The notes beneath the pieces were generated by a model. The model ran no database searches, was not told the origin of the DNA, and was given only the letters and a program-made list of their open reading frames with translations. Positions 1 to 4,574 of a stretch of 4,574 nt of DNA are shown here, piece after piece. Origin of the DNA: a virus (lineage: Duplodnaviria; Heunggongvirae; Uroviricota; Caudoviricetes); the IMG/VR virus record IMGVR_UViG_2547132269_000010; one strand, written 5' to 3'. The first letter of the stretch is position 1. Each line of letters opens with the position of its first letter. The translations under genes and the position numbers were made by a program.

Positions 1-300
1 TTGATATCGAGATTTTTGGCAGCACTATTACTACAAGATGCACATGATCTGGCTATACATTTAACTCCAGAACCTCGCAATCCTTTATCCCGCAGGGTCC
101 TAAAGCGGTATTTTGGCGTCCAGATTATGTGATATTTGCAATGCCAATATACATGTGAATGTGACTAGTCCTGATATAAGTTGACACTTTTCTGTCTGTA
201 ATGGAGTGCCCCGCGCCCCTGGACAAATCTGTAGATAAACGGAAATGCACCAAGGGTTCTTCTGTTTGCGAATGCTAGCTGTCTAGTCGTTGATTAAGCC

Positions 301-330
301 TTGACATTTGTGATTCATGTTATCCATAGT
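301..330 (+). promoter_or_regulatory. candidate sigma70 promoter for the zinc-ribbon/MTase operon
   Basis: Perfect -35 hexamer TTGACA at 301-306; only weak -10 candidates 17-18 bp downstream (CATAGT at 325-330); about 40 bp upstream of the 373 start codon. A second TTGACA at 181-186 has no properly spaced -10. Confidence 0.25.
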
Positions 331-372
331 GAGTAAATCATTTTCATCTGATGTTATAAAAGAGAGGTACCA

Positions 373-648
373 ATGGTGACATGTAATTGTTGTGGTAAGG
401 CTCTGAACAAAGGTATTTGGACTCTGGATGGCAAATATAAAAGTTGTCCATTATGTTCATCTACGCATGGCGTTGAGCACATTTTCCGGCGCTATCCCGA
501 GGACTTTGGAACCACTGATGCCAGGATTACGCCGACGAACCCTGATGGTGCTCAAAGCTATTGTATTGACTGTCGGGGATTAGATAAAGGACAATCATCA
601 CTGGTAGATCTCACCAAACAGAGATTATGTAATACAGTGCGAATTTAA
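373..648 (+). CDS. small Cys-rich zinc-ribbon protein (91 aa) with Mu Com-like N-terminal finger; putative regulator or accessory factor of the downstream methyltransferase
   Basis: ATG at 373 preceded by Shine-Dalgarno AGAGAGG (361-367, 5-nt spacing). N-terminus has CxxC (C4,C7) then GKALNK, then CPLC (C25,C28); same spacing and the C-x-K-x-L-x-K signature as I recall for phage Mu Com (CKNCNKLLFK...CPRC). Further CxxC at C64/C67. Stop TAA (646-648) overlaps the ATG of the next gene (TAATG). Function inferred, not demonstrated. Confidence 0.6.
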   Translation: MVTCNCCGKALNKGIWTLDGKYKSCPLCSSTHGVEHIFRRYPEDFGTTDARITPTNPDGAQSYCIDCRGLDKGQSSLVDLTKQRLCNTVRI

Positions 649-1328
649 TGAATTTAAATCAGTTAGATGCAGTTGAATGGCTAAAAACACTCCCTTCTGG
701 GAGTGTTGATCTATTTGTAACAGATCCTCCATATGAATCGCTTGAAAAACATAGAAAAATAGGCACAACAACTAGGCTGAAAGTAAGTAAGTCTTCTAGT
801 AATGAATGGTTTGCTATCTTTCCAAACAGTAGATTTGGAGAGCTTTTAACCGAAATGTATCGTGTCCTCAAAAAGAATCGTCATCTATATATTTTCTGTG
901 ATCAAGAAACTATGTTCCATCTGAAGCCGATTGCCGAAGATGCTGGGTTTAAGTTTTGGAAACCAATTGTCTGGAACAAGATGGCTATCGGAATGGGATA
1001 TCATTACCGTGCCAAGTACGAATTTGTTTTGTTTTTTGAGAAAGGAAAGAGGAAGCTCAACAACTTAGGTATACCTGACATCTTGGAAGTGAAGAGGGTG
1101 ATGAGAGGGTATCCAACCGAAAAACCAGTTGATCTTATTAAGATTTTGATTGAGCAAAGTACAGTTCAAGGTGAGTCTGTATGTGATCCTTTTTTTGGTT
1201 CTGGCTCAACTTTAGTTGCAGCTTTCGAGTTAGGACGTTCTTTCTTAGGGACAGATATTTCGCCATCAGCTCATGCTTACTTTAAGCAGCGGTTATCTGA
1301 CAGCCAGTTAATACTTGACACGCTGTAA
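648..1328 (+). CDS. DNA methyltransferase, beta-class N6-adenine/N4-cytosine family (226 aa), probably N6-adenine-specific
   Basis: Motif IV DPPY near the N-terminus (VTDPPYES, codons at 723-734) and motif I near the C-terminus (DPFFGSGST, about 1185-1211), preceded by the conserved YPTEKP box: the beta-class order IV then I. No Shine-Dalgarno; start overlaps the upstream stop, implying translational coupling. Stop TAA at 1326-1328. Confidence 0.9.
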   Translation: MNLNQLDAVEWLKTLPSGSVDLFVTDPPYESLEKHRKIGTTTRLKVSKSSSNEWFAIFPNSRFGELLTEMYRVLKKNRHLYIFCDQETMFHLKPIAEDAGFKFWKPIVWNKMAIGMGYHYRAKYEFVLFFEKGKRKLNNLGIPDILEVKRVMRGYPTEKPVDLIKILIEQSTVQGESVCDPFFGSGSTLVAAFELGRSFLGTDISPSAHAYFKQRLSDSQLILDTL

Positions 1329-1336
1329 TGTTGGAT

Positions 1337-1358
1337 GGGGTTTGTAGTGAACCCCTTT
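1337..1358 (+). terminator. possible weak intrinsic terminator after the methyltransferase gene
   Basis: Hairpin GGGGTT (1337-1342) / AACCCC (1350-1355) with 7-nt loop, followed by only TTT (1356-1358); begins 9 nt after the MTase stop codon. The short T-tract makes this weak. Confidence 0.3.
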
Positions 1359-1596
1359 CAAAGAGTTTAGTCTCAAGGATTACTGGGGGGGAAGTAAAGT
1401 GATGAATTCAACTCCCTGATTGGAAGCTGAACTCGAATGTGCAATTAGGTGGAGATATTTGAAGCTTTAACGGAAGATTTCTCTTGTTGGGGTCTGAACT
1501 ATCTTTTCTGCATTTGGAGTGCACTCAGACCTCATGAATATAACGGTGGGTTACCGCCGAACGAATAGGAAAATAGATACTGGAAAAAATCTAAAA

Positions 1597-1785
1597 TCAT
1601 GGCAGTTTTTGTTGACCACTACAGTTCTTGGTAACAGGGATAATGTAGCGAAACTGCCAGATTTTACTTCCGCTGGATTTGATGAGTAGCTCAAGGCCAT
1701 CACCATCATAGAGAACATAGTCCGCTTCTTTGGGGTTGGCTGATTCGATTTCCTTAACGGATAGAGGTTTGGTTTGTCTTGCCAT
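1597..1785 (-). pseudogene. truncated/decayed P4 (IntA)-type tyrosine integrase, N-terminal arm-binding region only
   Basis: Minus-strand ORF from ATG 1783-1785 gives MARQTKPLSVKEIESANPKEADYVLYDGDGLELLIKSSGSKIWQFRY, closely matching the conserved N-terminus of enterobacterial P4-family integrases as I recall them (MARKTKPL...DGDGL.LLIKSSGSK.WQFRY). The frame stops after 62 codons at 1597-1599. An overlapping shifted frame reads ...FRFFPVSI..., possibly residual frameshifted homology. No catalytic domain follows on the minus strand. Confidence 0.6.
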
Positions 1786-1803
1786 TGCCGGGTTTCCATA
1801 GTT

Positions 1804-1858
1804 TTAGGCACCTCAAAAACAATAAAGCTTTATGAGGTGCCTAACAAGGTGCCTAAAA
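1804..1858. promoter_or_regulatory. palindromic plus direct repeats of AGGTGCCTAA immediately upstream of the integrase start; candidate operator/Int-binding or leader structure
   Basis: Perfect 12-bp inverted repeat TTAGGCACCTCA (1804-1815) / TGAGGTGCCTAA (1833-1844) with 17-nt spacer, plus a third direct copy AGGTGCCTAA at 1847-1856; lies 19-73 nt upstream (minus-strand sense) of the integrase ATG. Confidence 0.3.
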
Positions 1859-1910
1859 GGTTCGGATTTAATTAGTTGGCATCGGACTTCGCGGGACAAA
1901 TTCAAGGCAC

Positions 1911-1942
1911 AAAAAAGCCCGCGGAGCTTACGCCGTGCGGGC
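1911..1942 (-). terminator. putative rho-independent terminator (minus strand) between crr and the integrase region
   Basis: GC-rich hairpin GCCCGC(GG) at 1917-1924 pairing with (CC)GTGCGGGC at 1933-1942, flanked by A6 at 1911-1916 on the plus strand (a U6 tail after the hairpin on the minus-strand transcript). On the plus strand it is followed only by TCTT. Confidence 0.35.
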
Positions 1943-2146
1943 TCTTAGGACTTCATCGGATGACTCTGGTAATCACCGATGGAGAATTTTGGTGGGCTGG
2001 CGGAGTTTGAATAAATATTGTATTGCTTTGATTTTTAATGATTTTGTTTAATTCATTTTTTGTGCGTATACCTAATCGTATACCAATGGCTGGAAGTTAA
2101 TGTGAAATGAAAGCGCATTTTTACTTGGATTGATGCTATATCGTAC

Positions 2147-2461: not shown

Positions 2462-2488
2462 ATAAAAAAAGACCGGCAGATGCCGGTC
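2462..2488 (-). terminator. rho-independent terminator of the primase-helicase gene
   Basis: Perfect 7-bp GC-rich stem GACCGGC (2471-2477) / GCCGGTC (2482-2488) with 4-nt loop, followed on the minus-strand transcript by a U7 run (plus-strand A7 at 2464-2470); starts 16 nt after the TGA stop at 2505-2507. Confidence 0.65.
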
Positions 2489-2504: not shown

Positions 2505-4574
2505 TCAGGTTGTTGCAGGGTCGTCACATTTTGGCAGCCAGTCGCCGTAGCTTTCCTCTTTCAGCGTCAGGTTGGTCTGTATCCCCTGTTTGGTATGGCG
2601 CTTCTCGTAATTCAGTCCGTATTCCTTCAGCATCACCGGCAGCCCCAGCCCGAACATTTTCAGACTGAGTACATTCCGGTAGCCGTTTGCCTCCATGTAG
2701 GCCAGATAGGCGTGATAGAGGTATTTACGGTAATTACGCGGGATGATACTGGCGTTCCCCATATACATGCCGCTGGTCTGCGGCAGGGTTTCCAGATAGC
2801 CGATAAAATCAAACGTCGGGTCGGCATCCCGTTTGATGTTCAGTGCCTCGTCTGAGTTCTGCTGGGACTGAAGCAGTGACCGGGCGAGCATCGGGTCGCT
2901 GAACTTCTGCATCAGGTGACGCACGATGACCGCCAGCTCGCGGGTGATTTTGTCCTTAAGCTGCGGGTCGCGCTCCTGCGGGGCTATCTGTTCCGGGAAG
3001 TGAATAATCACCCGCCGGCGTGACACGCCGCCGCTGCGGTCGGTGAAGCGCATCGGGTTATTGTTCACGGCCAGAATCACCGCCGGGATATGCGTGGAGT
3101 ACGCATCCCGGTATTTCGGGTCAACGGACACCGCGTCGCCGCCGGTGATGGCCTTGAGTCCGGCACCGTCGCCGCTCCATTTTTCCTGGTCCGGCAGGCG
3201 TATCAGTGAGAAGCCAGTTAACGCGGCACGTTCACGCGGGGATTCCAGCGTCTCGATGGTGGCCGACGTGGCGTTATCCTCCCCGGCCAGCAGGGTGGCT
3301 ATTTCGGCCATGATACTTTTGCCGCTGCCGCCGGGACCGGTCACCTCCAGAAAGAGCTGCCAGTCGTAGCGGTTTGCCAGCACCATAAACAGTGCGGCCA
3401 GAATCACGTCGCGTTTTTCCGCACGACCACCGGCAGCACGGTCAAGCCAGCGCCAGAACGCGGGAGCGTGGGTTTCCAGCGTTTCACCGTCCACCGGCGG
3501 GGTGAAATCCACATCACACAGGGTACGCATCCAGTGTGACGGACTGTGCGGGTGGAACGTACCGTTCTGCGTGTCGAGCACGCCGTTACGAAAGCCAATC
3601 AGGCGGCGGGAGGGGGCTTCCTGCTGCGGAATAATCAGCTTCAGGGTGTCCACCACGGAGGCCACCTTCCCGGAGGAGAACGGCGCGCGCAGCCGCTGAA
3701 ACAGCCCGGCCACATCCCGGGCAAAGTCCTGTGGTGGCAGCACCTTCCAGACACCATTTTCATAGCGGGACAGAAGCTGGCCGTTGGCATCGACCGCGAG
3801 CGCCTCGCCGTAATGCTCATAGATACGCATGGCCTTTTCGCTGGTACTCATGGCGGAAAACTCCGCTTCGCTCATGGTGTCGAACGGGCTTTCAGCCGGT
3901 GGCCGGATTGCATCATAAATGGCCTTACGGGTGGCCTCCCCGCCGTACTGCGTGAAGGCATCATTCCAGTCACCGAAGACCGGCGGCAGGGCAACAACAC
4001 CTTCACACGCATCTGCGGCTGCGGCGGCTTTTTTCTGGCCGTCACCGCTGAGGTCACGGTCAGCGGCAAGGACAATCTGACAGGCGGGGGGCTTCTGCCG
4101 GGCAAGGCTGGCCAGAGAAAGGAGGTTCACGGAAGAAAGCGCCACCATCACCGTTTCACCGGTCAGGTGATGCACGGTAAGTGCGGTCGCGTATCCCTCC
4201 GCTATCCACAGACGTTTTCCGGCCTGATTCTGTCCTTCAAGGATGTGACAGGTGCCCCTGACCTGTCCGCCTTTCAGGGTGCGCTTACGGCCGTCAGCAC
4301 TGATTAACTGAAGGTTAACCAGTTCGCCGCTGTCGTCATACAGTGGCACCACAAGGTCACCGGCGCGCCAGCTCACGCCACCGGCTCTGTGTGTGCCGGT
4401 CAGCATCCGGCATTCCCGGCCGGGAAAGCCCTTGCGGGTCAGGTAGGCGTTACCGGTTCCGGGACGGGGTTTCGCCATCAGGGTTTGTGCCAGTGCGGCG
4501 GCGTTCTTCCGGGCGGCTTCTGTTTCAGCAACGGCGGCGGCCGTCACTGCCGGGTCAGCCGGTGGCAGGCTGGC
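2505..4574 (-). CDS. alpha: P4 alpha-type bifunctional primase-helicase (replication protein), 5'-partial; N-terminus beyond the window end
   Basis: Minus-strand frame is open from the window edge (no stop between 4574 and the first start-like codon, GTG at 4545-4547) to TGA at 2505-2507. Translation has TOPRIM-type primase motifs (WIAEGYATA with Glu codon at 4197-4199; AADRDLSGDG), a Walker A P-loop GPGGSGKS (3315-3338) and a C-terminal domain. It is followed by TGTTCACC iteron repeats, the known binding sites of the P4 alpha C-terminal domain. Confidence 0.9.
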   Translation of the reverse strand, partial: ASLPPADPAVTAAAVAETEAARKNAAALAQTLMAKPRPGTGNAYLTRKGFPGRECRMLTGTHRAGGVSWRAGDLVVPLYDDSGELVNLQLISADGRKRTLKGGQVRGTCHILEGQNQAGKRLWIAEGYATALTVHHLTGETVMVALSSVNLLSLASLARQKPPACQIVLAADRDLSGDGQKKAAAAADACEGVVALPPVFGDWNDAFTQYGGEATRKAIYDAIRPPAESPFDTMSEAEFSAMSTSEKAMRIYEHYGEALAVDANGQLLSRYENGVWKVLPPQDFARDVAGLFQRLRAPFSSGKVASVVDTLKLIIPQQEAPSRRLIGFRNGVLDTQNGTFHPHSPSHWMRTLCDVDFTPPVDGETLETHAPAFWRWLDRAAGGRAEKRDVILAALFMVLANRYDWQLFLEVTGPGGSGKSIMAEIATLLAGEDNATSATIETLESPRERAALTGFSLIRLPDQEKWSGDGAGLKAITGGDAVSVDPKYRDAYSTHIPAVILAVNNNPMRFTDRSGGVSRRRVIIHFPEQIAPQERDPQLKDKITRELAVIVRHLMQKFSDPMLARSLLQSQQNSDEALNIKRDADPTFDFIGYLETLPQTSGMYMGNASIIPRNYRKYLYHAYLAYMEANGYRNVLSLKMFGLGLPVMLKEYGLNYEKRHTKQGIQTNLTLKEESYGDWLPKCDDPATT

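Follow-up and report, generated by a model that had tools for sequence, protein, structure and literature searches.

The window analyzed here, meaning the whole stretch of 4,574 nucleotides (nt; one strand, 5′ to 3′), belongs to the virus record IMGVR_UViG_2547132269_000010 (IMG/VR; Caudoviricetes). Over its entire length it is 99.8% identical to CP030787.2, the sequence of Escherichia albertii 2013C-4143 (strain name according to PMC10673567). The right part of the window contains the alpha primase-helicase gene, the cis replication region (crr) and an attachment (att) core of a P4-like satellite. The left part contains a truncated integrase gene, scars of two insertion sequences (IS) and a two-gene cassette, which encodes the cysteine-rich protein p91 and a DNA methyltransferase. 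The two sides differ strongly in their guanine plus cytosine (GC) content, and the origin of this difference as well as the border between the two sides were analyzed.

Between positions 2150 and 4572 the window was found to be 97.6% identical to satellite phage P4 at the DNA level, the annotated crr included. The alpha gene (2505-4574, minus strand) is represented by the C-terminal 689 of its 777 codons, since the reading frame is open to the window edge. The encoded protein matches Toprim_3, D5_N, DUF5906, Pox_D5 and TIGR01613. The Rho-independent terminator of alpha is located at 2471-2488 (minus strand). The crr extends from 2147 to 2450, has a GC content of 39.5% and is 97.6% identical to the P4 stretch annotated as crr. 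It contains two direct repeats of about 120 bp (2147-2269 and 2328-2450) and five exact copies of the type-1 iteron TGTTCACC, compared to 0.14 copies expected by chance. The segment from alpha over its terminator (t-alpha) to crr is largely the same as in P4 (X51522 / NC_001609), which has the two 120-bp repeats, the TGTTCACC iterons, the terminator and a step from 61% to 39% GC as well.

The att region is different from that of P4. P4 has an att site of the leuX-tRNA type, whereas an arm and a core of the ssrA type are found in the window. The homology to P4 stops at 2150, and the integrase past the core is neither P4 Int nor the satellite's own. The att-proximal arm of the satellite (2012-2146; 29.7% GC) is common to P4-like elements that integrate at ssrA, but absent from P4. 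The remaining genes of the satellite, namely sid, delta, psu, epsilon and its own integrase gene, were found outside the window in the closest genome (locus L009, 99.8% identical) and its relatives, in which the domains Ogr_Delta, Psu, Derepression (epsilon), AlpA and Phage_integrase were detected. The distance to the satellite's own integrase gene, which follows psu on the right, is 8 kb in the E. albertii loci.

The att core was located at 1988-2011 (minus strand), with the satellite to its right and a neighboring island to its left. Its 24 nt (TGGTGGGCTGGCGGAGTTTGAA) represent, with slight divergence, the 3′ end of ssrA (TGGTGGAGCTGGCGGGAGTTGAA), the gene of the transfer-messenger RNA (tmRNA), and are identical to the attR core of the satellite in strain Ec55. 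The matches of this region in E. coli fall into three classes. In P4-like elements of the first class, which are ssrA integrators, the homology that starts on the alpha side reaches 1988-1996. In the second class, comprising P4 and elements with other att sites, the homology extends only to about 2147-2151. The third class matches 1625-2011 and is annotated there as a junction of integrase and ssrA, with an identity over this stretch of 93.6% in some E. coli strains and 80% for the intA junction of CP4-57 in K-12. The block of the satellite and the block 1625-2011 overlap only in the 24-nt core.

In Ec55 the gene order is ssrA, int, Hachiman genes, psu, delta, sid and further genes up to alpha, followed by crr, the identical core and the chromosomal gene glaH. 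This order, together with the limits of homology, identifies 1988-2011 as the distal att core of an integrated satellite and places all DNA to its left outside the satellite. No intact tRNA or tmRNA gene was detected in the window or in four related loci by a tRNA/tmRNA scan.

Next to the core, on its left side, the region 1786-1987 (minus strand) corresponds to the sequence upstream of an integrase gene and downstream of ssrA. It contains three AGGTGCC(TAA) copies at 1804-1853, just upstream of the truncated integrase gene, two of which form a 16-nt inverted repeat. These repeats are probably arm-type integrase binding sites of the neighboring island. A terminator-like hairpin is located at 1915-1929, downstream of the ssrA core. 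The hairpin is also covered by a match to the Rfam model of the Salmonella small RNA IsrM (1911-1967, minus strand; 23.9 bits, E = 8e-4), which is far below the gathering score and probably due to chance.

The truncated integrase open reading frame (ORF; 1597-1785, minus strand) has a length of 62 codons. The first 53 codons (1627-1785) encode integrase sequence, after which the frame runs into an IS fragment. This part represents the arm-DNA-binding domain, with matches to PF13356 and NF007246 over residues 1-56. With the second integrase of E. coli E47, which is located on the attR side, across the att core from alpha, the fragment shares 96% identity. At the DNA level, it is 93% identical to the N-terminus of the ssrA-adjacent integrase pseudogene upstream of the espC region in E2348/69. 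In contrast, the identity is 51% to the satellites' own integrases and 40% over 53 amino acids (aa) to P4 Int. On the basis of these identities, the truncated integrase is assigned to the neighboring ssrA island and not to the satellite. With 53 codons it is incapable of function.

The IS fragment that cuts the integrase gene (1518-1624, plus strand) was found to be the right end of an IS3-family element similar to IS911. It comprises the last 107 bp or so with the terminal inverted repeat (...GTTGACCACTACA) and ends in ...CACTACA. Compared to the IS911 of phage Sf6, it has 86% identity to the last 110 bp at the right end. Neither the orfA and orfB transposase genes nor a second IS end were found; since only 38 residues of the C-terminus of orfB are detectable, the fragment is regarded as a remnant. 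In nine related E. albertii loci the IS911-like end abuts codon 117 of the integrase. The window and CP030787.2 lack 188 bp of the integrase flush with the IS end (1624/1625), which the nine other E. albertii loci retain (10978-11165 in L005). As expected for an IS-adjacent deletion, this loss starts exactly at the inverted repeat of the IS.

On its left side, the cassette region is bordered by a second scar at the end of the window, a degenerate fragment of an IS200/IS605-family tnpA (1-158, minus strand) that continues beyond the window. Many E. coli records contain an IS200/IS605 tnpA that shares about 90% identity with positions 3-158. The IS200-like remnant spans 9071-9511 of the locus in the closest genome, where it has an internal deletion of 45 bp.

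To the left of the window, the loci L004 to L013 carry a gene with an EspG domain and a gene for a SPATE autotransporter (Peptidase_S6 and Autotransporter domains). This flank is 86% identical to espC-espG2 of the enteropathogenic E. coli (EPEC) strain E2348/69. The EspC island is described in a passage of PMC7545054, which cites Mellies 2001, as a 15.2-kb element of low GC content at ssrA with an integrase and transposases. The corresponding features were found here, namely an integrase beside a copy of the ssrA 3′ end, espC together with an EspG/VirA homologue, a GC content of about 40% and several IS elements. As far as that passage describes the island of E2348/69, both have in common the low GC content, the ssrA site, an IntA-type integrase beside the ssrA core, several IS, espC and the VirA/EspG homologue. 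They differ in that the p91-methyltransferase cassette is missing from E2348/69 and no satellite separates its island from ssrA, and in that the integrase is cut to 53 codons and the espC-espG block is inverted in the locus studied here. In the direct comparison of L009 (1-9353) with E2348/69 (L037), the inversion of the espC-espG2 block is relative to ssrA, and more IS200-like fragments were observed nearby.

These results indicate that the window is very probably the junction of two mobile elements, which are integrated in tandem at the ssrA gene of E. albertii, and that the GC step is located inside the P4 backbone and not at a cargo boundary. The right side would be the distal end of a P4-like satellite, consisting of alpha, the terminator, crr, the att arm and the att core. 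To the left of the core would lie a decayed island of low GC content and of the EspC pathogenicity-island type, of which the window contains the proximal end. Counted from the core, the island would be composed of the integrase remnant, the p91-methyltransferase cassette and the IS200-like scar, followed by espG2 and espC outside the window. A methyltransferase identical to the 226-aa protein of the window is encoded at ten places, all of them on contigs of 64 kb to 4.66 Mb. All ten contigs have the same island genes on the left and a complete satellite with a second integrase on the right. As one unit, the left 1.6 kb was found in none of 5,426 complete E. coli genomes.

Tandem islands at ssrA are present in E. 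coli E47, too, where the satellite, a copy of the core and the integrase of a second element follow each other as in the window. In E47, however, the second integrase is of full length and directly followed by IS1 and the chromosomal glaH. At the junction of intA and ssrA of CP4-57 in K-12, the satellite is absent.

The order of integrase fragment, arm, core, arm, crr and alpha is exactly that of a circular P4-type element. The window could therefore be read as the attP configuration of an extrachromosomal P4-like element with a foreign integrase, in which case the cassette would travel with the satellite. This is almost certainly not the case, as the ten loci with the identical methyltransferase lie on contigs of the size given above, between island genes and a full satellite with a second integrase. 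In addition, the integrase with its 53 codons is non-functional, and arrangements of two integrases also occur in E. coli E47.

In the original prediction, which was made from the sequence alone, the AT-rich operon was regarded as cargo in the variable region of the satellite next to its own int, either inserted there or in place of the equivalents of gop, beta and cII. P4-like satellites indeed have a hotspot next to int, located between psu/cos and int, in which foreign, AT-rich genes are found (Rousset et al. 2022, PMC9122126). This hotspot resembles the cassette region in that small AT-rich cassettes are exchanged beside an integrase, and restriction-modification (RM) genes are among its known contents (PMC9122126). 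The gop-beta-cII genes of P4 have a similarly low GC content of 34-37%. Moreover, int, attP, crr and alpha are neighbors on the circular map of P4, which makes the order in the window superficially P4-like.

The hotspot, however, sits at the other end of the satellite. In the E. albertii loci the region between psu and int is filled by a SIR2 gene, a NACHT gene or the gene of a 294-aa protein, with SIR2 in the closest genome. The operon lies beyond alpha, crr and the att core, which separates alpha and crr from the integrase fragment. The adjacent integrase, taken for that of the satellite, is only 51% identical to the satellite's own, compared to 96% for the island-type integrase. To the left of the cassette, espG and espC island genes and not psu/cos are found on contigs of up to 4.66 Mb. 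The P4 genes gop, beta and cII were not replaced at this place. It is therefore extremely improbable that the operon is satellite cargo. The alignment to P4-like elements, by which the cargo boundaries were to be defined, did reveal a boundary of the satellite at 1988-2011, but the cassette is outside of it. What stands of this model is the horizontal acquisition of the operon from a different origin, as the cassette has a GC content of 36-43% in every host examined.

Since alpha/crr and int of an integrated satellite lie at opposite ends, an integrase beside alpha does not mark the variable region of a satellite and calls for caution. A second integrase across the att core is rather a sign of a tandem neighbor.

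The psu-int hotspots of the related satellites contain SIR2 in E47 and L009, Hachiman (HamA and a helicase) in Ec55 and NACHT in L004. Their coordinates are 19000-25000 in E47 (L003) and 21273-24798 in Ec55 (L015). In E47 an anti-phage dCTP deaminase was observed just past the integrase.

The base composition was determined for both sides. The GC content was 40.6% for positions 1-2450 and 60.9% for positions 2505-4574 (segment counts, in agreement with the sliding-window profile). The GC content at third codon positions (GC3) was 34-36% in both operon genes (373-648 and 648-1328) and 71% in alpha. The contrast between an AT-rich and a GC-rich part is real and far beyond chance, so that the original prediction was correct about the AT-rich left part and about the GC-rich alpha gene with its GC-biased codons.

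Using a maximum-likelihood scan for one breakpoint, the best position was found to be 2472 (2-lnL support 2466-2533) with a log-likelihood gain of 95. When the breakpoint was forced to 1650, the gain was only 47. A second breakpoint within 1-2472, including the truncation point of the integrase, was not supported (best gain 2.5, permutation p = 0.41). The GC contents of 1-1650 (40.3%) and 1651-2450 (41.1%) do not differ (chi-square p = 0.82), and the values on the two sides of the position where the integrase homology is lost (1624/1625) are 40.2% and 44.1%. The breakpoint is inside the alpha terminator, and the position of the switch is that of the alpha stop codon and the terminator. This is about 820 bases to the right of the end originally assigned to the AT-rich part. 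The range 1-1650 is thus only a section of the AT-rich block, which reaches the alpha stop codon and terminator. In summary of the GC and codon analysis, the difference expected between the two parts is significant, but it is located at 2472 instead of about 1650 and does not coincide with the loss of integrase homology.

In phage P4 itself, the GC content is 60.9% for alpha, 39.0% for crr and 39.3% for the attP region. Because P4 has the identical step, the step in the window belongs to the P4 backbone and is no mark of a cargo insertion. It is an intrinsic and conserved trait of the P4 family, in which a GC-rich replication gene is followed by an AT-rich region with origin-like and attachment sequences. 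The left 2.45 kb reads as a single AT-rich block, since the GC content of the neighboring island (about 40%) equals that of crr and att. The left flank in the closest genome, outside the window, has a GC content of 39.5%.

Escherichia chromosomes have a GC content of roughly 50%. The alpha gene is with 61% well above this level, and the trinucleotide signatures of alpha and the cassette are dissimilar (r = 0.20), as might be expected if alpha were the newcomer and a recent recombination had grafted a foreign GC-rich gene onto an AT-rich element. The same junction of alpha and crr with the same GC values is found in P4 and in more than 1,000 E. coli elements at 94-98% identity, however, and the signature of alpha matches that of the remaining left operon of the satellite (r = 0.91; 54% GC). 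Any such graft would predate the P4 family and be uninformative on this locus, and a recent graft is very unlikely.

The locus is an ordinary mosaic of a P4-like satellite and a presumably older island, which follow each other at the tmRNA gene. For its formation, the following order of events is proposed. An EspC-type island would have integrated at ssrA first. A P4-like satellite may then have integrated into the still-intact ssrA, leaving the shared core 1988-2011 between the two elements. An IS3-family element would have entered the island integrase, and deletions would subsequently have taken most of the IS and the rest of int. The p91-methyltransferase cassette, which is now between the IS3-family scar and the IS200 scar, may have been brought in or rearranged by IS activity. 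The proposed arrival order is in line with tandem islands at tRNA sites in general, in which the newest element is nearest to the target gene.

Some observations weigh against this interpretation or parts of it. The ssrA gene itself is unseen in the E. albertii loci, because their right ends, at a distance of 10 kb, fall within the IS911 copy by which the integrase of the satellite is cut. The attachment at ssrA in this strain is therefore deduced from the core sequence and from the parallels in E. coli. Compared to E2348/69, the espC-espG block has the inverse orientation with respect to ssrA, so that the island is rearranged. Finally, the cassette is flanked by IS scars, yet target duplications or an intact transposon were not found around it.

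Since both integrases are disrupted in CP030787.2, the tandem array is probably immobilized and fixed in the chromosome of strain 2013C-4143. The E. albertii locus thus documents a rearranged variant of the EspC island, probably immobilized, with an additional methyltransferase cassette. In L009 (20425-20681), the IS911 copy in the satellite's own integrase is 99.5% identical to IS911 of phage Sf6.

The two-gene cassette is preceded by a promoter-like site at 301-330 (plus strand; TTGACA, 18-nt spacer, CATAGT), which was predicted by a consensus scan only. A putative ribosome binding site, GAGAGG, is located before the ATG at 373. The first gene (373-648, plus strand) encodes p91, a cysteine-rich protein of 91 aa. 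The second gene (648-1328, plus strand) encodes a beta-class N6-adenine/N4-cytosine DNA methyltransferase of 226 aa with DPPY and FGSG motifs, and its ATG overlaps the stop codon of p91 (TAATG). The protein matches PF01555 (E = 5.5e-36) and the PADLOC models for type II methyltransferases, and its motifs are in the order of the beta class. The best matches in the Protein Data Bank (PDB) were N4-cytosine and CcrM-type methyltransferases.

Homology of the cassette region to other genomes spans 332-1298, between the IS scars. The genes for p91 and the methyltransferase are paired in all 21 related loci (L001, L002 and L016 to L034). Likewise, the pair is present in 19 out of 19 species-representative genomes found via p91, as well as on a Salinivibrio plasmid and on 4.9-kb enterobacterial Mob plasmids. 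The Erwinia copies have 80% identity for p91 and 93% for the methyltransferase, and their trinucleotide signature correlates with that of the window's cassette (r = 0.76). In Vibrio, Shewanella, Photobacterium and relatives, the identity is about 54% for p91 and about 72% for the methyltransferase. The cassette is commonest in the relatives of Vibrio and Shewanella. Its GC content matches that of the host in several Vibrio, Photobacterium, Pseudoalteromonas and Aliivibrio genomes. It deviates by 10-19 percentage points in Erwinia, in one Shewanella species, on the Salinivibrio plasmid and on the small enterobacterial plasmids.

Within the 19 genome loci, neither a conserved third gene nor a cognate restriction endonuclease was found beside the cassette; the neighbors are unrelated housekeeping genes. 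Literature searches for the cassette yielded nothing relevant. The cassette of 1 kb is self-contained, foreign and horizontally acquired DNA, yet it is no cargo of the satellite.

In Shewanella cutis (L018), two inverted repeats of 67 nt (9399-9465 and 11287-11353) bracket the cassette and are 87% complementary, which hints at a transposon-like or MITE-like carrier (MITE: miniature inverted-repeat transposable element). Long inverted repeats that could serve as a mobility mechanism were found in this one Shewanella locus and not in the other genera examined.

For the analysis of p91, 86 sequences were compared. No variation was seen at C7, C25, C64, C67, C86, H36, N56 and R68, and at least 90% of the sequences retain C4 and C28. 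This pattern suggests that p91 probably binds two zinc ions. The AlphaFold2 model of the protein is of good confidence, with a pLDDT of 87.6. Neither the families of Pfam, NCBIfam and PADLOC nor the folds in the PDB yielded a match to p91. The only profile match to PDB sequences, the zinc finger of Tim15, was not significant (E = 0.14). A nuclease domain was not detected with Pfam, PADLOC, NCBIfam or PDB folds, and the predicted secondary structure is not of the beta-beta-alpha type.

An exhaustive profile search revealed 231 cluster representatives of the p91 family. Many of them are stand-alone proteins and many have an N-terminal DUF3553. Among the 18 homologues with more than 195 aa, an HNH nuclease domain is present at the C-terminus of 9, and fusions to a PF01555 methyltransferase and to DndB were found once each. 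The gene of the DndB fusion has a PF01555 methyltransferase gene two genes upstream. Two p91-HNH genes adjoin genes of PF01555 methyltransferases, with an overlap at the start of the methyltransferase gene in one case, as for p91. With one of the nucleases (P0141), p91 shares 49% identity over the 75 N-terminal residues of the nuclease.

The operons of HNH nuclease and PF01555 methyltransferase, which are of the type II RM type and of metagenomic origin (L038 and L041), are similar to the cassette in that the end of the zinc-module gene overlaps the start of the methyltransferase gene. In contrast to these, p91 ends with the zinc module and lacks an HNH domain or any other nuclease domain. The partner methyltransferases in L038 and L041 are not orthologous to that of the window, as their motif order is permuted. 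From these comparisons we infer that p91 may be a stand-alone version of the N-terminal DNA-recognition zinc module of restriction-type HNH nucleases, and that the cassette could be a derivative of an RM operon without the nuclease.

A further, tentative and rather doubtful interpretation concerns the function of the pair. It could be a widespread and uncharacterized two-gene system, composed of a methylation "writer" and a "reader" of sequence or methylation, which would have been derived from an HNH RM operon by reduction to the zinc module. In this case p91 might regulate the methyltransferase or serve as a decoy, which shields incoming mobile DNA from a cognate p91-HNH nuclease, and the pair would be neither a classical restriction system nor a plain orphan methylase. 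The lead that emerges from the cassette is the zinc module of p91 itself, which is recurrently linked to HNH nucleases and to N6/N4 methyltransferases. The genes of p91-HNH proteins and other fusions (P0140, P0141, P0212, P0159 and P0219; L038, L041 and L045) were observed to adjoin MutH-like genes in some cases.

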